From: an uncultured Chloroflexia bacterium
GTDB taxonomy: Bacteria; Chloroflexota; Anaerolineae; CG2-30-64-16
Length of the DNA stretch: 64,000 bases
Assembly (NCBI GenBank): GCA_963783655.1
Contig: CAWAOA010000011.1
Location: 490,659 to 554,658, forward strand
Direction: 5' to 3'
Both the position numbers and the translations under genes were made by a program. Below the pieces are notes generated by a model, which had not been told where the DNA came from, did no database searches, and worked only from the letters and a program-made list of their open reading frames with translations. Positions 41,100-64,000 of the stretch are shown piece by piece. The first letter of the stretch is position 1. Every line of letters starts with the position of its first letter.

Positions 41100-41103
<4 letters not shown>
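40117..41103 (-). CDS. EamA/DMT-family transporter, paralogue (one frame change near ~40800)
   Basis: N-terminal EamA repeat in ORF 40117..41103 (ILLLITVVIWAVNFVVLK), the remainder in ORF 40140..40799. GTG start overlaps the ftsH stop. Confidence 0.7.
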
Positions 41104-42936
<1,833 letters not shown>

Positions 42937-46586: not shown

Positions 46587-48921
46587 CTACCGCCGTCCGA
46601 GTAACCGCTTCAAGATAAATACTGCCGCCAGCTTGTCCAGGGGGTGGTTGAAATTGCCGCACTTAGGGCTTTGCACGCAGCTTGGGCAGCCACCCGTACA
46701 CGGGCAGTTGTCTACGGCGTCCAACGTGGCCGACCACAACTGGGGCAGCAGCTCGAACCCCTTCTCGGCGATCCCCACCCCGCCGGGAAACCCGTCGTAG
46801 ATGAAGATCTGCGCCGCATCCGTGTCGGGATGGCGGGGTGTGCTGAGGCCGCCGATATCCCAACGGTCACACATGGCAAACAGCGGCAGGATGCCGATCA
46901 CGGCATGTTCGGCTGCGTGGATCCCGCCCAGGAAGTCGAGCCCCTGGTCCGGCAAGCTGGCCCGGCAAATCGTCGGGTAGATCCCACCACATCCCCATGG
47001 TGTCGTAATCGTTCGCAGGCATCTCCAGCTCTACGTCACCGAGAACGGCTTCGGTGAACTGCTGGAGGCGGCGATAACCTGTTACCTGGCTGCGCACCCG
47101 TATCATGCCGTAGTAGGCCGGCGCCGCCGGGAAGGTGGCGTGGCGCACGGACCGGACGATGCGCACGTCGTTCCACTCGCGCGGCTGGGTGTAAAAGTCT
47201 CCTTTGGAGCGCTGCACCACCGCGTAGCGCATCGCCTCATTATACTCTGTGACCTCGTATGACTCCCCCTGGTGCAGGTAGACGGCCCCGGGGTGCACGC
47301 GGAACGGCGCCTGGCTGGCGCTCAGCTCCTCCAGCGTCTGGTTGTCGCGATCTCCGTCCAGCACGGCGAAGCGTTCCCCCCGGGCATCACGCAGATTGGT
47401 GTTCTGCGCCGGGTAGTCGCCGCGCGTGTAGGTCCAGCGACGCCCGTCATAGCGGACCAGGCCCTGGTTCTCGAGCGTCACCATGGCCGGTACGAAACCG
47501 GGCCCAAAGAGCGTCTCGTCGTCTCCGAGCGCACCCACCGGTTTCGGCTCCCCCTCGCCGGGGACCTGCAGTGGGGCTTCGTGCGCCGCGCACGCCAGGT
47601 GCCGCTGCAGTACGTAGACGTTGTCCGGGTCGATCAGGGCGTGCTCGTGCGGGCGGTCGAACAACTCATCCGGATGGCGCATGTAATACTGGTCCAGCGG
47701 GTTGTTCAGCCCGATCAGCATCGCCAGCGAAGGATCGCGGTCGCGGCCGGCGCGCCCTGCCTGCTGCCACATGCTGGCGATGGTCCCGGGGTAGCCCACG
47801 AGCACCGCCGCGTCCAGCTCGCCGACGTCGATGCCGAGCTCGAGCGCGGTGGTGGCGGTGACCCCGCGCAGCCGGCCCTCGAACAGCTCTCGCTCGATCC
47901 GGCGGCGCTCCTCGGCCAGGTAACCGGCCCGGTACGCCGCGATCTGCTTCACCAGCTCGGGGTTCGTCTTGCGTAACTCATTCCGGGCGTAGCGCAGCAG
48001 CAGCTCGGCCACGACCCGCGTGCGGGCGAAGCTGATGGTCCTCACCCCGGATTCCACCAGCGTCGTGAAGAGAACCGTCGCCTCGCGGTTGGCGCTGCGG
48101 CGAGCCGTGCGCGTCTCATCGAGAAACGGCGGGTTCCACAGCGCGAACGTGCGCGGACCGTGCGGCGATCCGTCGTCGGTGACCACGGTCGCCGGGAGCC
48201 CGGTGAGCAGCTCGATGTGCTCGCCGGGATTGGCAATGGTAGCGGACGCCGCGATGAACTGCGGCCCGCCGCCCTGCTGGTGCAGGGCGCAGATGCGCCG
48301 CAGCCGGCGGATCACGCACGCCACCTGCGAGCCGAAGACACCCCGGTAGCTGTGCGCCTCGTCGATCACCACGTAGCGCAGGTGCCGGAAGAACTCCGCC
48401 CACAACGGGTGGTTGGGCAGGATGCCGACGTGCAGCATGTCCGGGTTCGTGATCAACACACGCGTGCGCCGGCGGATGCGCGCCCGCGCCGCTTGCGGCG
48501 TGTCGCCGTCGTAGGTGGCCGCCGCGGCATTCGCCACCGGCTTCGCCAGCGCCTGCCACTTGCCCAACTGGTCCTGGGAGAGCGCCTTGGTCGGGTAGAG
48601 GTACATGGCACGGGCGAGCGGATCGCGCGCCAGCGCGTCGAGCACCGGCACGTGAAAGCAGAGTGTCTTCCCGCTGGCGGTCGACGTGGCGATCACCACG
48701 TTCTGCCCGGCGAGCGCGGCGTTGATCGCCTCCGCCTGGTGCAGGTACAGCCGTTCCACCCCGGCCGCGCGCAGCGCCGCTTCGGCAGGCGGCGCCAGCC
48801 GCGTCCGCAGCGAGCCATACCGCGCCGCCCGCGCCGGCATGCGCTTCTGGTGCACCAGTTGCCCCGCATACCCGCGCTGCCTGGTCAGCTCACGAAGGAA
48901 GGCATCGGGATTGAAACCCAT
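46587..48921 (-). CDS. DEAD/DEAH-box helicase with C-terminal DUF1998 zinc domain (YprA/MrfA type); one frame change near ~46960
   Basis: Motif I ATSTASGKTLCF, motif II VVIDEAHSY, helicase C region. DUF1998-like tail ...HAAEHAVIGILPLFAMCDRWDIGG...CPCTGGCPSCVQSPKCGNFN in ORF 46587..46955. Confidence 0.8.
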
Positions 48922-49739: not shown

Positions 49740-49965
49740 GTCGTTGTGAGAGGGGGGCTCCCTCCAGGTTGAGCCCCTCCGGTTGACCCCTCCGGGTGAC
49801 GCATAACGTAAGACCCCTGCGGGTGACCCATCCGGTGACGGTGACGTATGACGTATGACGGCTGCCCCCCATTTCCCCGCAGCAACCCGGCCCCAGATCA
49901 TCGACTTTGCGTATATAATGTCCCCGTACCATTCGCTCCATCACGGGGCGAGAACAGGAGATGGG

Positions 49966-51340
49966 ATGACACGCGTCACGGAGATCGTGGAGCGGCGACG
50001 AGAGGAATTCCTGGCGGAACTGTCCGAGCTGCTTCGCTACGCAAGCGTCAAAAACAATGAGATGGAGCTCGGCGCGGCTGCGGGTTGGATCGCCAACCGC
50101 ATGCAGCGCGCCGGAGCGCACGTGCGCATGCTGAATACCGGCGGTCCGGCTGTGGTGTTTGGGGAGGTGGGCAGCGGTCCGCGCGCCCTGCTCTCCTATG
50201 CCCACTACGACGTCCAGCCGGCCGACCCGCTGGATCTGTGGGATACCCCGCCCTTCGAGCCTACCGTCCGCGACGGGAAGTTGTACGGGCGCGGCTCCTC
50301 GGACGACAAGGGGGACGCGGTCGCCCGCATCCAGGCGGTCGAGGTGTATCGCGAGGCGTACGGCGAGCTGCCGTTACGCGTGAAGTTCTTCGTGGAAGGG
50401 GAAGAAGAGGTAGGCAGCCCGCATCTGGCCCCCGTGGCTGCCCAGTATGCCGACCTGCTGCGCTCCGACGGCGTGCTGTGGGAGTCGGGCGGCTTCGACG
50501 AGATGGACCGCTACACCTTCTACTGCGGCGTCAAAGGGATCGCCTACCTGGAATTGCGGCTCAAGGGCGCCAACACCGATCTGCACTCCAGCCTCGCGCC
50601 CATCGTTCCCAATCCGGCATGGCGCCTCGTGCAGGCGCTCGCGACGCTGCGCGATCCCGCGCGGCCGCATCACGCTGGACGGCTTCATGGAGCGGGTCCG
50701 CCCGCCGAGTGAAGCGGACCTGCATTTCATCCGCCGCATCCCCTTTGCCGGCGCCCAGATGAAGGCCAATTGGGGCATCCCCGCTTTCGAAAACGACCTG
50801 CCCGACGATGAGGCGATCGTCGCCTATCTGACACAGCCTACCTGTACGATCTGTGGCATCCGCAGCGGCTTCATCGAGGAGGGGGAGAAGACGATTCTGC
50901 CCAGCAGCGCCATGGTGAAGCTCGACTTCCGGCTGGTGCCGGACCTCACGCCGGAGCTGACGCAGATGCTGCTGCGCGAGCATCTGGACCGGCGCGGCTT
51001 CACCGACGTCGAGATAGTGCCTGCCGCGGGGATGCCCGCCGCGCGTTCGAACGTCAGCTCGCCGCTCGTCCAGAGCGCCATCGCGGCGGCCGAAGAGGTC
51101 TACGGCCACGAACCGGTCGTCTACCCGTCGCACGGTGGTTCCGGCCCCATGTATCCCCTCGTGCAGGGCCTGGGGATGGATGGGTTCATGGCGGGGGTGG
51201 GCTATGCGGGCAGCCGCCTGCATGCGCCGAACGAGAACATCCGGGTGGACGACTACTTCCGGCACATCGAGTTCCTGGTGGAGTTCATGCGCCGCTTCGC
51301 TGCAAACGAAAGCGGAGATACATTCCCCCATAATGGGTGA
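49966..51340 (+). CDS. M20-family metallopeptidase/dipeptidase (one frame change near ~50650)
   Basis: SYAHYDVQPADPLDLWDTPPFEPTVRDGKLYGRGSSDDKG and FFVEGEEEVGS are in ORF 49855... The C-terminal half is in ORF 50447..51340. ATG 49966 is preceded by AGGAG. Confidence 0.8.
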
Positions 51341-51431
51341 GTGTAGGTTACAATGGAGCTACAGGGTGAATACCCGCTGCGCATGGGCGCGCCTAGCCGC
51401 CGGCTGCGCCCGGCTGACCGAGGAGCGATAG

Positions 51432-51950
51432 ATGAAAGGCAACGGCATGGATGAAGAGCTCAACACCAACGACGTGCAAGGGTTCGACGAGGGCGATGAA
51501 CTCCTCGACGATCAGCTATACACGGTGCTCGACGACGAGGCGCGCGAGGATCTCGAGCAGCTCGTCGATCTGAAGATCGTGGGCCTTGACGTCTGGGAGG
51601 ACTCGTTGAGCGATGCCGAGGACGAGGAGCCGGTCAAGCCGGAGGAACGCCTCTTCTTCGACTGCGACCTGCTTTTCGAAGACGGGCTGGCGCTCGAACT
51701 CTACGCCGCCGCCGTTTACCCCGATCCTGAGGGGGAGCCGATCAAGGGGATGGACGAGATCACCCGCATCGTCGGCCAGCTGGCAGACGGCAATCTACAA
51801 TTGCTGGACTTCGACCAGGCGGATGAGGAAAGCGGTCTGGCGCTCGCATTCGGCAGCTCGCAGGACAAGACGGATCTGGTGATCGCCGCCGGTGCGTGGC
51901 TGGTGAGCGAGTGGGAAGAGGAAACCGAGGCGCCCGGCGAGGAACAGTAG
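51432..51950 (+). CDS. Highly acidic hypothetical protein
   Basis: 172-aa intact ORF, very Asp/Glu rich. No recognisable family. Confidence 0.4.
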   Translation: MKGNGMDEELNTNDVQGFDEGDELLDDQLYTVLDDEAREDLEQLVDLKIVGLDVWEDSLSDAEDEEPVKPEERLFFDCDLLFEDGLALELYAAAVYPDPEGEPIKGMDEITRIVGQLADGNLQLLDFDQADEESGLALAFGSSQDKTDLVIAAGAWLVSEWEEETEAPGEEQ

Positions 51951-51962
51951 CCGGGTGAGCCG

Positions 51963-52370
51963 GTGACCGCCTGGCAGATAGCCGACGGTGCGGATCTGGA
52001 AACGCTGGAGCGGATAGCCGCTCTGGTGGCCGAGGTCGAGGGGGCGTCCGAGGGTGAGGGCGTGTTGTACCACGCAGCGCATCCTCGCTACCGTCCGCTT
52101 CTCACCCGGTTCATCGACGTCGAAGGCGAGCTCGCAGCGGCTATCCTGCTCGAGCACCAGCGCCGCCTGGTTCAGGGCCGGCCGCTGGATACCGGATACA
52201 TAGCGAACATCCTTACGCGCCCGCGTTATCGCGGGCGCGGTCTGTTTAAGGCGTTGATGCTCGACGCGCTCGCCACGCTGCGCGCCGAGGGCGTGCCGCT
52301 GGCGCTGCTCCACGGGCCGCGCAGCCTGTTCGACATGGTCGAGCGGCCCGAGTGGGCCCATTTCCTCTCG
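51963..52370 (+). pseudogene. GNAT (Eis-like) acetyltransferase, N-terminal fragment only
   Basis: Acetyl-CoA loop ILTRPRYRGRGLFKALMLDAL is present. Sensible sequence ends around LLHGPRSLFDMV (~52340), and the rest of the ORF is out-of-frame read-through of the next gene. Confidence 0.5.
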
Positions 52371-52371
52371 C

Positions 52372-52893
52372 CGCAAGTTCACCGATTTCTACAAGGAGGA
52401 CTACACCCGGGCGGCCGAGGCCACCGGCGGGCGGATCGATCTGTACCTGCTGATCAGCGACCTGGGCAGCCAGACCGGGCCGCTGATCTCGCTGCCGATG
52501 TTCCGCGAGTTCGTCGCCCCGTACATCAAGGAGATGGCCGACTGCATCCACGGCTTGGGGGCGAAGGTGCTCTACCATAGTTGCGGCGTCGATCCGGCCG
52601 TTCATCCCCGAGTTGATCGAGCTGGGCGTCGACGTGCTCGACCCGATCCAGCCGGTCGGGCCGGAGATGTCGCCCGAGCGGCTGAAGGCCGATTTCGGCG
52701 ACCGGCTGTGCTTCCACGGCGGGATCGACATGCAGCACCTGCTGCCGCACGGCACGCCGGAGGAGGTCGCGGGCCGAGGTCCGCCGCTACTGCGAGACCC
52801 TGGGCCGCGACGGCGGCTACATCCTCGGGCCGGCCCACCTGTTCCAGCCCGACGTCCCGCCGGAGAATATCCTGGCCGTGTATGGGCGGCTAA
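52372..52893 (+). pseudogene. Uroporphyrinogen-decarboxylase (URO-D)-like family protein, C-terminal half only, frameshifted
   Basis: ...FTDFYKEDYTRAAEATGGRIDLYLLISDLGSQTGPLISLPMFREFVAPYIKEMADCIHGLGAKVLYHSCG / IPELIELGVDVLDPIQPVGPEM...CFHGGIDMQHLLPHGTPEEV / [30 protein letters not shown], in three frames. The N-terminal ~half is missing. Confidence 0.55.
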
Positions 52894-52896
52894 GCC

Positions 52897-54465
52897 CTAC
52901 CTCGCCATCTCCGTGTGCCGCGTTTCGCGCAGCACGGTGACTTTGATTTCGCCGGGATAGGTGAGCTGCTCCTCGAAGGCCTTGGCGATGTCGCGGCAGA
53001 TCTTGGCCGCGGATTCGTCGGTGGTGTCCTTGCGAGCTGACCATGCACGCGCAGTTCGCGGCCGGCCTGAATGGCGAAGGCCTGCTCGACGCCGTGGAAG
53101 CTCGCTGGCGATCGATTCGAGTTCCTCCATCCGCTTGATGTAGCGTTCGAGCGTCTCGCGCCGCGCGCCGGGCCGCGAGGCGCTGCAGGCGTCGGCCGCG
53201 GCGACGAGCACCGTGTAGGGATTGTCGACGTTGCATGTCGTCGTGGTGGCCCGGCGGCGGCGTGGACGACTTCGGCGGCTCGCCGTAGCGCTTCAGCAGG
53301 TCGGCGCCGATCTTGGGATGGCCGCCCTCGGCCTCGTGGTCGGCCGCCTTGCCGATGTCGTGCAGCAGGCCGCAGCGCCGGGCGAGCGTGCCGTCCAGGC
53401 CGATCTCTCGGCGATCATGCCGGCGAGGAACGCGACCTCGATCGAGTGCCGCAGCACGTTCTGGCTGTAGCTGGTGCGGAACTGCAGCCGGCCCAGCAGG
53501 TTGACGATCCGCTCGTGCAGGCCGTGGACGTCGGCCTCCTGGCCGGCCTGCTTCGCCGATCTTCTGGATGTGCCGTTCCATTTCCTTCTGCGTCTCGGCG
53601 ACGATCTCCTCGATCCGCGAGGGGTGAATGCGGCCGTCGGCGATCAGCTTGTTCAGCGAGAGCCGGGCGACCTCGCGGCGGATCATGTCGAAGCCGCTGA
53701 CGATGACCACGCCCGGCGTGTCGTCGATGATCACGTCGACGCCGGTCGCCTTTTCGAAGGCGCGGATGTTGCGGCCTTCGCGGCCGATGATCCGCCCCTT
53801 CATCTCGTCGCTGGGGATGTCGACCGTGCTGGTGGTCGTTTCGGCGGTGTGCGCGGCGGCGTAGCGCTGCATCGCGGTCAGCAGCACCTCGCGCGATTTC
53901 TCCTCGCAGGTCTCGGCGATGCTGCTTCTCGTGCTTGAGGATGACCGCGCCGGTCTCCTGCGGGAGTTCGGTTTCGAGGTCCTTCCAGCAGCCGCGCGGT
54001 GGCCTCTTCGCGGCTCAGGCCGCTCAGCTCGTGCAGCGTCTGCCGCTGCAGGTCGAGCAGCTTGGCGAGCTCTTCCTTGCGGCGGTTGGTGTCCTGGATC
54101 CGCTCGGTCAGCTTGCGCTGCGTGCCCTCGACGATCTTCTCCTGCTTCTGGAGCTGCTCGGCCTGCTTCTCCAGGGCGTCCTGGCGCTTGTCGAGGATGC
54201 GTTCGCGCTCGTGCAGTTCCTCGCGGAGCTTGCGGAGCTCCTTCTCGCCCTCGGCCTTCTGCTGGATGGCCAGCTCCTTGATCTCCAGTTCGGCCTCGCG
54301 GCGGCGGCTGCTTGGCCTCCTGCTCGGCGCTGCTCGATGATCTGTCGGGCCTCGGACTCGGCGTCCTTGCGCCGAAGATGATCCAACGCACTTGATGACG
54401 ACGAAAGTCAGCACGGCCGCCAGCGCGGCCGCGATGAGAATCGCATGACGGTATGTACGCAGCAC
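52897..54465 (-). CDS. rny: Ribonuclease Y, at least 8 frame changes
   Basis: N-terminal TM ([17 protein letters not shown]), coiled coil, KH domain ([36 protein letters not shown]), HD domain ([12 protein letters not shown]) and C-terminus [20 protein letters not shown] are spread over all three frames. Confidence 0.8.
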
Positions 54466-55328
54466 GGCTCTGGCCCTCGCTCATATCGGTCCGGGCAAGC
54501 GCCTTGCCGAAGCGATGCCGCCAGCGCCGGCAAACGCCGGGCGTCGGGCGGACGCAAGAAAGCAAACCGGCCGCGGGCCAGTGCAATCCCCATCGGGACT
54601 AGCCGAAGCGGACGCGATCGGCATCGCAAGCGCGAGGCAACAGTGGAGTCCCCGGCACGCCGCTGGCCGACCGAACGTCGACCGCTCCTGCGCCGGCCGG
54701 GCAAGCGCCGCCGGCGCAAGAACGGACCGTCGTCCGGGAGGACCACAAAACCTTTCCAACACAAGGCCGACATCCATCCAACCAACGTTCGAGCCGGTCC
54801 GGCGACGACGAGTCGCCCGATGCGCGCCGCTGCGCGCCACGCGATCGCCGAACCGGCGACAGCCGCTGCCGTCCGCGACGGCCGCGGCCTCGACAACCGG
54901 CCCTCGCGAGCCCCAGCATGCATCGAATCATCGTCAACAGCCAAGACATCAGCTTGTCGGTTCCAAACGTTGGATGGTAATTTCTGCCAAGTCTGTCGCT
55001 ACTAGATCCAATCCAGTCGCGCTTTTCAGCGTCGACTGACCCTCGGCCGTCGCCCCTCGGGCTCCACCGAAGACACTCACCATTTTGTTTCGTACAATGT
55101 CCTCCTACGTCAGGCGACATTGTTCGTCTTCTCGCCCCCCCGAGGACCGCCAATCGTGGCGGGCAACGGGGAATTCAGAGAAACTACTGCAATCGTACCA
55201 GAGATTCGGCAAACTGCAACAGGGAATCGGCCGCTTCGGTGGGAGATAACTTCACTTGCCGGTTCAAGTTAGGGCGATTAGGCTAAGCGTAGCGGGAGAG
55301 AGCCGGCGCCCAAACGTCCATCGTAGCA

Positions 55329-56361
55329 ATGGCCCCACGCCCATCCCTTCGAAACAGCCTTGGCCCGATCGTGGCCCCCTCGGACTGGACAGGACGTCAC
55401 CGTTCTGCTGGCCGTTTCGGGCGGCGCGGACAGCGTGGCGATGCTCAGGGCGATGCAATCACTGGCCACCGGGGGGCGCAAGCAACTCCTGGCCGCCCAT
55501 TTCAACCATGAACTTCGAGGCCCGCGAATCCGACGCCGACGAGGCGTTCGTCGTCGAGTTGTGCCGCCAATTGGGGGTGCACTGTGCGGTCGGGAAGGCC
55601 GTCGGGCAACCTGGCCCGGCCGTGCGGCGGCGTGGGGCTCGAAGCGGTCGCCCGCCGGGCCCGGTACGCCTTCCTCGAACAAACCGCCGCGCGGCTCGGC
55701 GCCCGATACGTCGTCACCGCCCACACCGCCGACGATCAGGTCGAGACGATCCTGCACCGGATCCTTCGCGGCACGGGCATCGCCGGCCTGTCGGGCATGG
55801 CCCGGGCGCGGCCGCTGGGCGAGGCCGCCACGCTGATCCGGCCGCTGCTTGGACGTTCGCCGCGCCGAGGTGATCGCCTACCTGGCCGACCTGGATCAGC
55901 CGTATCGGCACCGACGCGACCAACGAGGACACGCGACTGACCCGGAACCGCATCCGCCACGAGTTGCTGCCGATGCTGGCCGACCGCTTCAATCCCCGGG
56001 TGGCCGACGCCCTGCTGCGGCTGGGCTCCCTGGCCGGCGAGGCCACCACGCTGGTCGACGCGACTCGTCGACGACTTGGCCGCGCGGTGCGTCCGACGGC
56101 GAGCCCCGGCAGGGTGTCGGATCGACCTCGCGCCGCTGGCGGGCCAACCGCGATACGTCGTCCGCGAGCTGCTCGTCGCCGCGTGGCGGGCGCAGTCCTG
56201 GCCGATGCGGTCGATGGGCTATCGCCGAGTGGGACGCCCTGGCCGCCATGGCCCTCGGCTCCGGCCCCAAGAAGAGAACCTATCCCGGCAACGTCTCCGC
56301 CACCGTCGATGCCGACACCCTGGTGCTGTGCCGCGAATGCGCGCCAATCCCTAACCCCTAA
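55329..56361 (+). CDS. tilS: tRNA(Ile)-lysidine synthetase, several frame changes
   Basis: PP-loop VTVLLAVSGGADSVAML, TAHTADDQVETILHRILRGTG and TNEDTRLTRNRIRHELLPML are found in different frames. The start is uncertain. Confidence 0.7.
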
Positions 56362-56371
56362 CCCCCAATTC

Positions 56372-57744
56372 CTAACCTCTAACCACCACCTCGACGCCGA
56401 GAATCGCACACAGGTCGCGCATCGCCTCGACGTGGTCGCCATAGGACAGGATGTAGTGCTGGCCGAGGACGTTCTGGATGAACGGCTCGACGTCGCCGTC
56501 GAAGTTCGACTCGAGGCTGGGCAATTGCGGCGCGGGCGGGGCCCAGCCGGCCTCTTCCCACGGCCGCGGCGCGACGGCCTCGCCGGTGGCCACGTGCAGC
56601 GCGTAGCGGTCGCCCGTCGAGCGCCAGCCGCGCCAGCGTCACCCGGCCCGTCTTCACCCTCGAGACGTTCAATAGCCCCTCGCCGAACTCGCCGAACGCC
56701 GTCGGGCATGACCGTCACCGGGCCGTCGACGATCTTCGCTGGGCACGTAGTCGGGCACGCCCATCAAGCCCCCGTCTCGGTGAACTCGTAGAACTCCATG
56801 TACGCGCCGACCTGGCCGGTCAGGTACGCGCGTGATCAACTGCGTGACCGCGCCGAGCGTGTCGTTCTCGGGGATCGTGCGAGACGTCGGCCTCCTCGTG
56901 CAAGAGCATGAAGACCCCGGCCGGGGCGAAACCCATCAGCTTCTTCACGCCGTCGACGTCGATCAGCGAGATCGCCTCGTAGCCCCGCTCGGCCACCTTC
57001 CGCCGCAGCGGCCAGAAACAGCCGCACGGTGCTCTCGATCGTGCCGGCGGCGGGCGGCTTGACGAACGTCCAGCGCCGCCGCACGCTCTCGGACAGCCGG
57101 GCGACTTCCTCGGGGTCGAGCTGCTCGATCGCCTGGGCCATCTCGAGCATCTCGAAGAACTCGACCTCGGGCCCGATCCGCCCGCGGAGCGAAACGCCGT
57201 CGTAGCAGCGTGCCGTAGAGCCGCATGTCGCGGTAGCCCATCTGGCCGATCCGCGCCCCGACGCAGCAGCGCCGCCGCCCGAGCCGCCCGGGCGTAGCTC
57301 ATGATCCGGTCGATGGGCGCGGGCCCGCCGAGCCGGTTGACGACGTACTTGAACGTGTAGCCCAGGTCCCGCATCGGCTTGCGCAGGGCCGTCGTGCCCG
57401 CCTGATCGGCCGTGGTGACGAACCGCCCGCCCTCGCTCCAGCCCGTCAGCCCCCAGAGCAGCATGGGCTTGTGCCGGAAGCGATCGGCGACGTCGATCAC
57501 GGCGTGCGAAGGGATCCACCCGGCGACGCACAGGATCAGCAAATCGAAATCCGCCGCGGCCAACTCCGCCGTGGCCCGGGCGACGTCCTTGCCCTGCCGG
57601 ATCGTCGCTGACCGGCTCGGTCCAGACCAGTTCGACCCCCTCGGCCTCGAGCAGCCGCCGCGCCTCGTCGCACTTCCGCCGGATGATCTCCCGCGGCGTG
57701 TTGACCTCGCCGAACCCAACAAAACCCGCTCGAATGTTCCGCAT
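56372..57744 (-). CDS. L-fucose/L-arabinose isomerase-family protein, at least 6 frame changes
   Basis: MRNIRAGFVGFGEVNTPREII..., LLILCVAGWIPSHAVIDV..., KPMLLWGLTGW..., GYEAISLIDVDGVKKLMGFAP... and the C-terminus HYILSYGDHVEAMRDLCAILGVEVV are reconstructed across frames. Confidence 0.5.
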
Positions 57745-57785
57745 GTCGGTTGTCTCACGTGTGGATGGGGCTTACAGTTCTCCAT

Positions 57786-58103: not shown

Positions 58104-58490
58104 CTAATTCCTTTCGGGATTCAGGGTTGTCCAGTAAGTTTGCCACATGCGGCTGTCGTCCAGACTCGCGAGGGCCATCATCGCTTCGGCGTTGTCTCCA
58201 TCCCAGCGGCGGCCACGGCCTTTGACCCGCTGCGTGGTGGTCTTGCACTCGCTTTCGGTGGGCCCACTGCCAATCTGCCAGCCGCGACGGCGGAACTCCG
58301 GGTAGCGGATCATCGGCCGGCACTCCGCCACATAGTGCATCAGGCGGTTCGCTTCTTTCCGTTTGATCGGCGACCGGAGGGGAGAACGCCAGGCGACCAG
58401 TTGGTCCCAAGCGGAATCGTACCCCACGTGCCGAAACGTGTGCATCACCTCCTCCAGCCAGGCCTTGCCCTGACGTCGAAACGGGGACGC
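58104..58490 (-). mobile_element. IS transposase C-terminal fragment (ISKra4-like, tentative)
   Basis: ...RLMHYVAECRPMIRYPEFRRRGWQIGSGPTESECKTTTQRVKGRGRRWDGDNAEAMMALASLDDSRMWQTYW. The N-terminal catalytic part is absent, and the fragment abuts the RAYT gene. Confidence 0.4.
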
Positions 58491-58492
58491 AG

Positions 58493-59215
58493 CTAGTTTT
58501 TGGCATGCCGGCGCTCGGCGATGGCTCTTGGGCGGCCTTCGGAGCGCAAGCGTGTGCAACAGCCCCAGGCGTTTGGCTTGTCTGGCTTGCCACGGCTCGT
58601 CGCCGTACGGCCGGTTCCTGTGCAATGCACGTCTGAATTCGCTCGACCTCCTTCTCCGTCATCGGCTCGTTGACCAGACGCCAGCCAACCGGACGGACGC
58701 TCCACCGGCCAGTCGCTCAAGATCGCTTTAGCCGCTCGCCGCCGTGACGCCGCGCCCACAGACTGCCCCAGCGCCAGTCCTCCGCGCGATCGACGACCCC
58801 GGCGGTCAGCGCGTTCCGCTCGACGTAGCGGCACGCCGTCAGGAAGTGCTCGTCCTCCTGGATCGGAAAACTCTTGAAGCGGCCCTGATACAGGTGCCCT
58901 CGCCCGACGGTCCCGTGCGCCACGTGCCACCGCATGGCGTGCGTGTGGGCCAGCCATCGCATGAAAGCCGTCACTTCGCCTTCTTCTCGCGGCCAGAGCA
59001 CGAAGTGCCAGTGATTGCGCATCAGGCACCAGGCGACAATCCGCGTCGGGTGCCGCTCGTGCGCCTCGATCATGATCCGCTCGAACGCCTCGTAGTCGCG
59101 CCTCCTTGCGAAACAGCGGCAGCCCGGCCACCGACCGATTCAGGACGTGGTACACCAGTCCGCCGGGCGTCACTCTTGCTCGTCTTGGCATGGCAGAAGT
59201 CTGTCGTTTTGGCAT
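58493..59215 (-). mobile_element. REP-associated tyrosine transposase (RAYT, IS200/Y1 HUH family), frameshifted
   Basis: GGLVYHVLNRSVAGLPLF, HUH motif CLMRNHWHFVLWP, GHLYQGRFKSFPIQ and catalytic-Tyr region ACRYVERNAL. The C-terminal ...RPYGDEPW...RSEGRPR extension is in other frames. Confidence 0.7.
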
Positions 59216-59242
59216 CGAGAAGTACTACCCAGTTTGTCAATA

Positions 59243-60535
59243 CTAGCTGCGTCCCCGTTTACTCGGCTCGATCTGCTCCTTGCCCACCCACGGCCGCAGC
59301 GCCTCGGGCACGACGACCGAGCCGTCGGCTTGCTGGTAGTTCTCCAGGATGGCGATCAGCGCCCGGCTGATGGCGATGGCCGTGCCGTTGAGCGTGTGGA
59401 CGAAGTGGGTGCCCTTCTCGCCTTTGATCTTGTAGCGGACGTCGAGCCGCCGGGCTTGATAGTCGGTGCAGTTCGACGTGCTGGTCACTTCGCCGTACTC
59501 GCCCGCGGCCGGGCATCCAGGCTTCGAGGTCGTACTTGCGATAGGCCGGGCCGCCGAGGTCGCCGGTGGCCGTGTCGACCACGCGGTACGGAATGCCCAG
59601 GCCGTCGAAGAGCCGGCACTCCATCTCGCGGAGGTGTTCGAGCATCGCGTCGCTCTGCTCCGGCAGCGTGAAGGCGAACATCTCGACCTTGGTGAACTGG
59701 TGGACGCGGTAGAGCCCGCGCGAGGCCCGGCCCGCCGCGCCGGCCTCGGTGCGGAAACAGTGGCTCAGGCCGCAGAGCTTGATCGGCAGCTCGTCGGCGT
59801 CGACGGTCTCGTCCGGCCAGCAGGCCGCCCAGCGTGATCTCGGCCGTGGCGACCAGGCTCAGGTCGGTGTTCTCGATGCTGTAGATCTGCGTCTCCGGCC
59901 CGCGGGGAATGTAGCCGATGCCTTGCAGGACTTCGTTTCGGGCCAGGTCGGGCGTGGTCATCGGCGTGAAGCCCTCGGCCACCAGCGCGTGGACCGCGTA
60001 TTGCTGCAGGGCCAACTCCAGCAGCACCGCCTCGTTCTTGAGGAAGTAGAACCCGTGGCCGGCGACCCGGGCGCCGGCCTCGAAGTCGATCAGATCGAGC
60101 TTCTCGGCCAGTTGGACGTGGTCCAGCGGCTTGAAGTCGAACTTGGGCAGCGGGCGTCGGCCCTTGGCCAGTTCGAGATTCGCCTTGTCGTCCACGCCGA
60201 TCGGGGCGTCGGGGTGCGAGAGGTTCGGGATCCCGCTTTGCAGCGCGGCGAGCGTCGCCTCAAGGTCGTCCAGCTCGGTCTTCAGCCGGCCGACCTGCTC
60301 GCGGAGCTGGCGGCCTTCTTCCTTTCGGGCGTCGCGCTCGGCGGGGTCCTTGGCCTGGCCGATCGACTTCGAGACCTGGTTGGCCAGCCGGTTGGCCTCC
60401 TCCATCGTCGGCCTGCTTGGACTTGCGCAGGGTTTCGAGTTCGACGAACCGCGCGACGTCGGCCGCGACCCCGCGATTCCGGCAGTTGCGTTGGACCAGT
60501 TCGGCGTTTTCGACAATGAATCTTCGGTCAAGCAT
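59243..60535 (-). CDS. serS: Seryl-tRNA synthetase, several frame changes
   Basis: [23 protein letters not shown]-terminus, coiled-coil arm, class II motifs, and C-terminus [16 protein letters not shown]...[34 protein letters not shown]. Confidence 0.8.
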
Positions 60536-60844
60536 GGCTAGGGGTAAGCCTTGAATGCGTGGGGGTGAAGAGGGGAGGTGGTTGGCAGAATGGCGAAAGC
60601 GGAAACGACGGTCGCCGAGTATTTGGGTAGGGTATCGCTTTGGGGCATTTTGTGCAAAGGGGTGCCCGCGGCGACACGGACGCGGGAGTCTCAACGACGA
60701 CCAAGCGAGTTGACCGATGCTTATGGCTTGTGGTGTGACGGAATACCCCCTAACAGTGTGATTATCACGGAACGGACAGCCGCTTAACTCGTTGTCCCAA
60801 CCGCCGGCTGCCGACTATAATAACGGGATTATCTTTCTCGCCCA

Positions 60845-61914
60845 ATGCGCCGGGCGCTGAACGCCGACGACGCACGACCCCTTTGTCAGGAGACCGTCCG
60901 TGTTCGATTCGTTGCCGTCGTCGGCGCCACCGGCGCCGTGGGGACCATCATTCGCGAACTGCTCGAAGACCGCAAGTTCCCGTTCACGAAGATCAAGTTC
61001 CTCGCCTCGCGGCCGTTCGGCGGGCAAGACGCTCACGTTCGCCGGGCAAGACGTACACGGTCGAGGAGCTTGACGCCCGAGGCGTTCGACGGCGTCGACC
61101 TGGCCATCGCCAGCACGCCCGACGACGTCGCCCGCGACTTCGTGCCCGAGGCCGTCCGCCGCGGCTGCGTCGTGGTCGACGAGAGCGGCTACTGGCGGAT
61201 GGACCCCAAGGTGCCGCTGGTGATTCCCGAAGTCAATCCCGAGGCGGTCGACAACCACCAGGGCATCATCGCCAGCCCCAACTGCTCGACCACGCAGATG
61301 GTCGTGGCCATGAAGCCGCTGCACGACGCCGGCCGCGATCCGCCGCGTGGTCGTCAGCACCTACCAGGCCACCAGCGGCGCGGGCCTGGCCGGCAGCCGC
61401 GACCTGGAACGGCGGCACCCGGGCGCTGCTGGCCGGCGAGGACTACCAGCTACGAGATGCTTCGCCCATCCGATCGCCTTCAACTGCATCCCGCAGATCG
61501 GCTCGCCCAAGCACCAGGGCTACACCTCCGAAGAAATGAAGATGGTCTACGAGACGCGCAAGATCCTGGGCGACGACGTCGATCCAGGTCTGCCCGACGT
61601 GCGTCCGCGTGCCGGTGAGCAACTGCCACAGCGAGAGCATCCTGGTCGAGACCGAGCGGAAGATCACGGTCGACGAGGCCCGCGAGCTGTTCGCCGCCAC
61701 GCCGGGCATCGTGGTGATGGACGATCTGGACAAGAAGGTCTATCCCATGCCGATCAACTGCGACCGGCGCGACGAGGTGTTCATCGGCCGCATCCGCGAG
61801 GACCTGTCCAGCCCCAACGGCCTGGCGTTCTGGTGCGTCAGCGACAACCTCCGCAAGGGCGCCGCCACCAACGCCGTGCAAATCGCCGAGCTGCTGGTGC
61901 AAGGGCAGCAGTGA
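60845..61914 (+). CDS. asd: Aspartate-semialdehyde dehydrogenase, several frame changes (start uncertain)
   Basis: [12 protein letters not shown], active-site [25 protein letters not shown] and C-terminus [23 protein letters not shown] are in different frames. Confidence 0.8.
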
Positions 61915-62006
61915 CGCCGTGCGAGGCGGCACCGGCCCTGACGAGCCGCGGCAGACGTCCGCAGCATGCGTTCGCCCTTGCACGGCCGTCGATCTGCATC
62001 GACGCC

Positions 62007-62784
62007 ATGCGCACCTTCAAGCTGACGCTCGCCTACGACGGCACGGCCTACGCCGGCTGGCAGGTCCAGCCGGACAAGCCGACCGTGCAGGCGACGCTCG
62101 AAGCGGCGATCGAGCAAGATCACCGGCCAGCCGATCCGCGACGCTGGCCAGCGGCCGGACCGACGCCGGCGTCCACGCCCTGGGCCAGGTCGTCGGCTTC
62201 CACACCGAGCACGCATCTGCCGCCGGACGTGCTGCAGCGGGCCCTGAACGCCGAACTTGCCGCGACGACATCGCCGTGCTCGACGTGGCCGAAGTGCCCG
62301 ACGGTTTCCACGCCGATCCGCGACGCCGTCGGCAAGCGCTATCGCTACGTGATCCACGACGGCCCGGTCCGCGACGTCTTTCGCCGCGCAGTACTGCTGG
62401 CACTATCGCCGCCGGCTCGACGCGACGGCGATGCACCGCGCCGCCCAGGCGCTGCTGGGAACGCACGACTTCAGCAGCTTCGAGACCAGCCGGCGCGCCG
62501 CGCGAGCACGAGCGTCCGCACGGTCTACGACATCTCGGTCCGTCGGCGAGGGCAGGGCAGGGCGAGGCAGCGCGATCTGATCGCCATCGAAGTCGAGGCC
62601 GACGGGTTTCTCTACAACATGGTCCGCGCGATCGTCGGCACGCTGGTCGAGGTGGGCCGCGGCGCGCGAGACGCCGCCTGGGTCGGCGAAGGTCCTGGCC
62701 GCCGCCGACCGCCGCGCCGCCGGCCCCACCGCGCCGCCGCAAGGACTGTTCCTGGTGCGCGTCGAATATCGTGACGATCGATAG
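62007..62784 (+). CDS. truA: tRNA pseudouridine(38-40) synthase, several frame changes
   Basis: [22 protein letters not shown], catalytic [30 protein letters not shown] and ...GLFLVRVEY are spread over frames. Confidence 0.78.
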
Positions 62785-62810
62785 TGACGTAACTGACTAA
62801 TCAGTCTCGC

Positions 62811-63964
62811 ATGCGGATCGCCCACGTCATCACGCGACTGATCCTCGGCGGGCCAGGAGAACACGGTGCTCTGCTGCGAGGACCTGCTGCGCGACTACGG
62901 CGACGACGTGCTGCTGATCACCGGTCCGCCGCTGGGGCCGGAAGGGAGCCTGCTGGAGCGGGCAAGGGCAGGGGGGGTGCCGCTGGAAATCATCGCCCGA
63001 ACTGCGCCGCGCCGATCCATCCGTGGCGCGATCTGGCTGAGCTACCGGCGCATCAAGCGATCCTGCGCCGCTTTCGGCCCGACGTGGTCCACACGCACAG
63101 CGCCAAGGGCGGCATCCTGGGCCGCGCGGCCGCCTGGTCGCTGGGCGTGCCGGCATCGTCCACACGGTACACGGCGCACCGTTCCATCCGTACCAGGGCA
63201 GGGGGGCGCGGCGGTTGTTTCAGGCCTGCGAACGCTGGGCCGCCGCGCGCTGCCATGCCATGGTCAGCGTGGCCGACGCCATGACCGACTGATGGTCGAC
63301 GCCGGCGTCGCCCCGCGCGAGAAGTTCACCACGATCTACAGCGGCATGGAGGTCGAGCCGTTCCTGCAATCGGCCGAGCATCGCGAGCGCGTGCGGCGCG
63401 AGCTGGGCTATCGGCCCGAGCACGTCGTGGTCGGCAAGATCGCCCGGCTGTTCCACCTCAAGGGCCACGACGACGTGATCCGGGCCGCAAGAGCGTCGTC
63501 GAGCAGAACCCGAACGTCCGATTTCTGCTGGTCGGCGACGGCATCCTGCGCCAGCGGCTCGAGCGGCAGATCGCCGACGCCGGGCTGACCGAGCACTTCC
63601 AACTCATCGGGCTGGCCGCGCGAGCGGATCCCCGAATTGCTCGCGGCGCATGGACATCGTCGTCCACGCCAGCCTGCGCGAGGGCCTCGCCCGGGTGTTG
63701 CCCCAGGCGCTGATCGCCGGCAAGCCGGTGGTGAGCTACGACGTCGACGGCGCCGCGAGAGGTCGTCATGTCCGGCGAGACCGGCTACCTGCTGCCGCCC
63801 AAGAGCGTCGAGCGAAATGGCCGACGCGATCCTCCGCCTGGCCGCCGACCCGTCGCTCCGCGAACCGCCTGGGCGCCGAAGGCCGGCGCCGCTGCATCGA
63901 CCGATTCGACCACCAGCAGATGACCCGGCCGATCCGCGAGCTGTACGTGCGTCTGCTGGGGTAG
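62811..63964 (+). CDS. Glycosyltransferase family 4 (GT-B, GT1-type C-terminal domain), several frame changes
   Basis: MRIAHVITRLILGG..., VVGKIARLFHLKGHDD, FLLVGDGILRQRLE and VHASLREGLARVLPQALIAGKPVVSYDVDGA are found in different frames. Confidence 0.65.
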
Positions 63965-64000
63965 GGCAGGGGGGCACTCCGTTTTCCGGTGACATTGCCG

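Follow-up and report, generated by a model that had tools for sequence, protein, structure and literature searches.

In long-read metagenome assemblies, chimeric reads or misjoins extend the ends of contigs. In the resulting chimeric contigs, unrelated genomes are joined at arbitrary points inside genes and have no shared sequence at the join, the added piece forms the end of the contig and has a poor consensus, single-copy markers are duplicated, and the joins are recurrent. The locus described here resembles such contigs in all of these respects and differs from them in that its tail is composite, with two foreign pieces in succession. It can also be compared with horizontally acquired genomic islands, with which it shares a foreign composition and foreign best hits beside native DNA, and a transposase (RAYT) inside. 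Unlike such islands, however, it has neither an integrase nor a tRNA nor direct repeats at its boundary, it is not followed by native DNA, and its cargo consists of essential core genes in planctomycete gene order, with one-base indels throughout.

The window, i.e., the whole stretch of 64,000 nt that was analysed, corresponds to C11:490659-554658 of an assembly (G000) from an uncultured Chloroflexia bacterium, comprising 20 contigs and 4.59 Mb, with an estimated completeness of 66% and an estimated contamination of 2.15%. The original prediction, made from the letters, had proposed an abrupt breakpoint at which two genes truncated mid-domain abut, and this breakpoint is real: by Pfam profiles, both the GNAT acetyltransferase gene to its left and the URO-D-family gene to its right are partial. 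Of the two readings offered with it, a genuine rearrangement or foreign-DNA junction and an assembler's join of unrelated contigs, possibly from different phyla, the latter was likewise upheld by the lineage split between the two sides, a ~36-fold step in indel density and the recurrence of such breaks at contig ends. From these sequence comparisons, we consider it very probable that the junction is a misassembly in which planctomycete DNA was appended to a Chloroflexota contig.

The breakpoint was located by DNA alignment to contig C128 of G031, a MAG titled Planctomycetia bacterium from Lake Pavin sediment that was found by a DNA search of the genomes behind planctomycete loci. It lies at window positions 52327-52330 (~C11:542,986), replacing the earlier estimate of ~52340-52372. 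The planctomycete-derived similarity formed one block (window 52330-57747 against G031:C128, 87.7% nt identity over 5.4 kb), in which TCGACATGG (52330) are the first similar bases. In the 70 nt 5′ of 52330, 22 of 70 positions matched G031:C128, which is the random level, and at most TGT (52327-52329) can be assigned to either side. The GNAT open reading frame had been said to make sense to ~52340; it is truncated, as claimed, but FDMVERPEWAHFL consists of URO-D and not of GNAT residues: its counterpart in the planctomycete URO-D protein is LDMHERPDWVHFL, and it happens to fall into the frame of GNAT. Similarly, the C-terminal half of a URO-D-like protein had been recognized from ~52372 onward; its N-terminal half is indeed absent, but URO-D starts at 52330, and the apparent change of frame at ~52369 is a 1-nt insertion within URO-D.

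Both genes at the join are cut, GNAT after codon 122 and URO-D from about residue 157. The Acetyltransf_9 match in the open reading frame from 51963 covers the first domain only and stops at residue 128, and the URO-D part matches positions 204-339 of the 346-position profile, the N-terminal half being absent; an intact orthologue of 341 aa was found in locus L089. G031:C128 reaches 1356 nt further upstream, where it encodes the URO-D N-terminus missing from the window, and carries intact URO-D-family (341 aa), rny (RNase Y) and tilS (TilS) genes. No tRNA was found in window 45-64 kb, no direct or inverted repeats flank the junction, and no integrase is present at it; the nearest transposase (RAYT) lies 6 kb inside the foreign block. 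Inspection of the junction by eye revealed no Nanopore adapter. The features on both sides are collected in Table 1.

Table 1. Features around the junction, in window coordinates.
Feature	Position	Strand	Remarks
M20/M25/M40 peptidase, native	49855..51340	+	Pfam Peptidase_M20 and M20_dimer over two frames; one frameshift at ~50655-50669
Acidic 172-aa protein, native	51432..51950	+	Without Pfam family; last complete native gene
Eis-like GNAT acetyltransferase, N-terminal 122 codons	51963..52329	+	Acetyltransf_9 profile 44-121 of 127
Breakpoint, very probably chimeric	52327..52330	.	At most 3 nt (TGT) common to both sides; G031:C128 similarity from 52330
URO-D-family gene, C-terminal part (about residues 157-341)	52330..52886	+	Pfam URO-D; 8 one-base indels
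rny (RNase Y)	52897..54480	-	Pfam RNase_Y_N, KH_1 and HD in separate frames; 20 indels
tilS (tRNA-Ile lysidine synthetase)	55330..56340	+	25 indels; colinear with an intact 378-codon open frame in L089
Gene named fucose-isomerase-like in the original prediction	56456..57744	-	17 indels; colinear with an open frame in L089
RAYT (Y1/IS200-like transposase) and fragment of another transposase-like open reading frame	58104..59215	-	Pfam Y1_Tnp, E 6e-11
serS	59264..60669	-	At least 2 frameshifts; 94% aa / 91% nt identical to Planctomycetia MAG L009
asd and following genes	60785..64000	+	85-89% nt identity to G031:C398; synteny with G032, G034 and G035

The two sides of the junction have different origins. 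On the left, the best matches of the helicase (684 aa, 46867-48921) were 70-73% identical, and those among them that carry an organism name belong to Chloroflexi, Anaerolineae or Caldilineae. The M20 peptidase, which is encoded 1 kb to the left of the breakpoint, has orthologues with 70-75% identity in six genomes of the same family, and in four family relatives a protein ~50% identical to the acidic one is encoded directly downstream of the M20 gene. The left 20 kb has repeats in common with all 20 contigs of the assembly. In addition, a 184-nt contig of an independent public sequencing run (X1) matches 51903-52086 with 99% identity and so connects the 3′ end of the acidic gene with the first part of GNAT.

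GNAT homologues in relatives are open frames of 315-466 aa, and the two that are clearly Eis-like have 418-439 aa. The C-terminal remainder of GNAT occurs nowhere in the assembly. When metagenome contigs were scanned, no close relatives of this gene emerged, and exact-protein look-ups returned no match. Among loci L118-L122 from same-family genomes, a HAD-type phosphatase gene lies 3′ of the pair of M20 and acidic genes in four (G011, G008, G007 and G004), and G012 is without it. In the present genome the GNAT gene occupies the place of this HAD phosphatase, whose gene is missing from the whole assembly. The true continuation of the native contig, for which the GNAT remainder and the HAD gene were looked for, was not found in the assembly.

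On the right, the impression that the gene content looks planctomycete-like proved well founded, with an identity of 85-91% at the nucleotide level to contigs of a Planctomycetia MAG together with the best loci for SerRS. Window 56250-64000 matches the G031 contigs C128, C189 and C398 at 85-91% nt identity, and the foreign block goes on past the window to C11:563,390, its continuation matching G031:C520. The rny gene is intact in L089, and the tail copy shows 80-86% nt identity to seven Planctomycetota genomes and 75% to an eighth. For the gene at 56456..57744, no Pfam family was found, and the L089 open frame that matches it is itself cut by the end of that locus. The SerRS identity of 94% at the amino acid level was measured over an intact stretch of 198 aa against L009. 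Among the best 80 loci for SerRS, drawn from species-representative genomes, all but one, which bears the label "uncultured archaeon", were Planctomycetota by title.

That exception, L050 (CAWHLK010000024.1, "uncultured archaeon" MAG MFD04780.bin.2.59), stands among 79 Planctomycetota matches with a SerRS 70% identical to planctomycete SerRS, and the record may be mislabelled or contaminated. The gene order around serS was not conserved across the 80 planctomycete loci. In the window, serS stands between the RAYT and asd, whereas in the 91%-identical G031 neither of the genes flanking it is the same, and in G032, G034 and G035 serS is far from rny and asd. The boundaries of the serS block coincide with gene ends. 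Its placement looks like a natural rearrangement, and it might also reflect a further hidden join.

The RAYT that the original prediction had placed on the right side is present as a transposase of the Y1_Tnp (RAYT-type) family in Pfam. Many copies of this stretch, 65-85% identical, occur in the Planctomycetia genomes G031, G032, G034 and G035. The RAYT/REP elements are an expanded family of the Planctomycetia lineage and are therefore planctomycete elements, foreign to the Chloroflexota host. For window 58475-59260, G032 and G034 contain dozens of copies in the same range of identity.

Single-copy genes are duplicated in this genome. Each of 20 relatives has one rny, while two are present here, the second of them on contig C3. 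The C3 copy is 81-92% identical to those of family members and 59-78% to those of same-class genomes, whereas the tail copy and the C3 copy share 56% aa identity, below any same-class relative (59-78%). Contig C7 carries a second serS, 33% identical to the tail copy, and a second tilS, 45% identical to the tail copy. Members of the URO-D family are numerous in the genome, and the aa identity of these paralogues to the URO-D part in the tail is 37-44%.

GC content was alike on both sides (~65-68%). The left 20 kb lay at a tetranucleotide distance of 0.0077 from the genome centroid and the right 20 kb at one of 0.0248, against a 95th percentile of 0.0176 among the 20-kb chunks of the genome. The comparison of profiles that had been suggested for the two sides thus set the right side beyond the 95th percentile and the left side within it. 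The right 20 kb was slightly nearer to the centroid of 50 planctomycete loci (distance 0.0216). The repeat families of the genome are truly absent on the right, as had been stated, but this has no diagnostic value: of 60 20-kb chunks drawn at random from the genome, 15 have at most 2 repeat hits. Repeat content was dropped as a marker of foreign DNA after this control, in which those 15 chunks were equally poor in repeats.

Sequence quality also changes at the junction. In four coding regions on the right side (4.5 kb), 70 indels were counted against the intact genes of G031:C128, none of them a multiple of three (49 insertions in the window and 21 deletions), and over the whole alignment to this contig 106 of 119 indels were single bases. 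The counts were taken from base-level gaps, since frameshift counts from tblastn proved unreliable in this GC-rich DNA. The description of the right-side genes as heavily frame-broken was therefore apt, with 8-25 indels that are not multiples of three in each of the four genes and the remaining genes split over several frames. The left flank has ~2 frameshifts in 4.6 kb (one in the 2.3 kb of the helicase, one in the M20 gene, none in the acidic gene and the GNAT part), and a 94%-identical relative in run X3 showed no indel in ~800 nt of left-side coding DNA. Indel density thus steps from ~0.4 to ~15 per kb at the junction, i.e., ~36-fold. We used this step as a proxy for a drop in coverage, the drop itself being what we infer from it. 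Indels of this kind beside a well conserved protein (SerRS, 94% aa identity) are evidently sequencing error and not gene decay.

The left genes had been said to read through intact. Error density is indeed far lower there, but the helicase (~46950), FtsH and the M20 peptidase are each frameshifted. Isolated frameshifts in native DNA were seen in the DUF1998 helicase (46950), in the M20 gene (50655-50669), in ftsH (41100-42640) and in rny (C3:268.5-272 kb). At least 3 frameshifts were counted in this native C3 gene, and coverage by open frames is patchy across the genome; the background rate of indel errors probably explains the completeness estimate of 66%. A rule by which frameshifts mean foreign DNA was rejected, native genes being frameshifted too; only the size of the step is informative.

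Several other accounts of the junction were weighed against a misassembly. In a genuine horizontal transfer, at least 20 kb of planctomycete chromosome would have integrated by illegitimate recombination, disrupting GNAT, and would now be decaying. The deposited contig does contain the join, the 3-nt microhomology is of the kind seen in illegitimate recombination, and GC is similar on both sides, all of which would suit such an event. The cargo, however, consists of core single-copy genes (rny, tilS, serS, asd and accA) that the host already has, and the 70 indels in 4.5 kb that are not multiples of three, beside conserved protein, form a pattern of error and not of neutral decay. A segment of the same chromosome would, moreover, share the depth and quality of its flank, yet quality drops ~36-fold. 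What lies beyond the segment is not native DNA but another break within a gene, after which the composition is of a third kind. The same breaks occur at other contig ends, including one with a tail of 33% GC, which shows that joins of this sort were made by the assembler. We therefore regard horizontal transfer as very unlikely. Were the join physically real, it would represent a very recent inter-phylum transfer into the GNAT gene that preceded adaptation to the host, to which we give very little credence; the consequence would be a Chloroflexota cell in which 20 kb or more of a planctomycete chromosome, with its essential housekeeping genes, had been inserted.

It is just as improbable that the misassembly was mediated by a repeat, the assembler having crossed from one organism to the other via a sequence common to both, for instance a conserved gene or an IS element. 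Misjoins in metagenomes often arise in this way, and the many URO-D-family paralogues of the genome (37-44% aa identical to the tail copy) could in principle have provided such a sequence. Only 3 nt are shared, however, the 70 nt to the left are random with respect to the planctomycete contig, the join is free of repeats, and GNAT and URO-D are not related to each other. Least probable of all, to the point of being negligible, is that one organism accounts for both sides, its genome having undergone a real rearrangement or deletion at the break. Similar GC, the placement of the whole contig in one bin and the low estimated contamination (2.15%) agree with it, but the two sides come from different phyla, single-copy genes occur twice in divergent versions, and the tetranucleotide signature shifts. 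Some observations also count against a misassembly. Background indel errors occur in native parts too (C3 rny), so that poor sequence alone is no mark of foreign DNA; GC is similar on both sides and the lack of repeats is not diagnostic; synteny between the right side and its relatives is incomplete, the context of serS being different in G031, G032, G034 and G035; and the search of the assembly for the true continuation of the native contig gave nothing.

For the misassembly, which we favour, the following course of events would account for the structure of the contig. The true Chloroflexota contig would end inside the Eis-like GNAT gene, and ~20.4 kb of low-coverage, error-rich Planctomycetia sequence (Pirellulales/Thermoguttaceae-like), from the same sample, would have been appended to it, followed up to the contig end by 9.2 kb from a third source (~54% GC). 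A chimeric long read, produced by ligation during library preparation or from molecules left unsplit by the base caller, may have extended the contig end, and the tail, backed by one or few reads, would have stayed unpolished, with near-raw indel errors. A chimeric long read of several molecules is expected to give arbitrary breakpoints, no shared sequence, two successive foreign pieces and a near-raw error rate, and is most likely the cause. Reads of the source sample were sought in three sequencing-run searches, which gave only runs containing ~5-6% of the sampled words. From these runs (X1-X3), short pieces were obtained (99% identity at 51903-52086 and ~94% at 51003-51902), none of which crosses 52.1-52.7 kb.

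A join of this kind would have no biological significance, and its value would lie in curation, as contamination to be removed from the genome record. The assembly represents its species in the genome collection that was searched, and at least 30 kb of its contig C11 would be foreign DNA, with similar tails elsewhere. If kept, these tails would give rise to false inter-phylum transfers, false rny, serS and tilS paralogues and false pseudogenes. The frame disruption and the RAYT/REP elements in window 52.3-64 kb would accordingly be read as planctomycete DNA with sequencing errors, and not as Chloroflexota biology.

Breaks of the same type recur at contig ends. On C11 itself, a second mid-gene break was found at C11:563,390, 20.4 kb after the first, where similarity to G031:C520 stops though C520 continues. 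In the last 9.2 kb of C11 after this position, GC falls from ~67% to ~54% and stays so to the contig end; no match to this part was found in four planctomycete genomes, and it probably comes from a third source. At C16:93,086, GC changes from ~65% to ~33% within a gene, whose frame ends "...VVQPIAHF". The tail of 7.6 kb that follows (C16:93,086-100,686, 33% GC) encodes frame-broken nadB and nadC, a CBS-domain protein, mreB and flgB-like genes, and is clearly chimeric, from a low-GC organism. On C2 (~695,000-706,665), GC rises from ~63% to ~72% over the last 11.6 kb. When the tetranucleotide composition was surveyed in 5-kb bins, 17 of the 46 outliers fell in the terminal 10 kb of contigs (4 expected), an enrichment that is supporting only, as ends are also atypical where assemblies break at mobile elements. 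More chimeric tails at contig ends are likely. Shifted GC or an outlying tetranucleotide composition was also seen at the starts of C10, C12 and C8 and at the end of C20.
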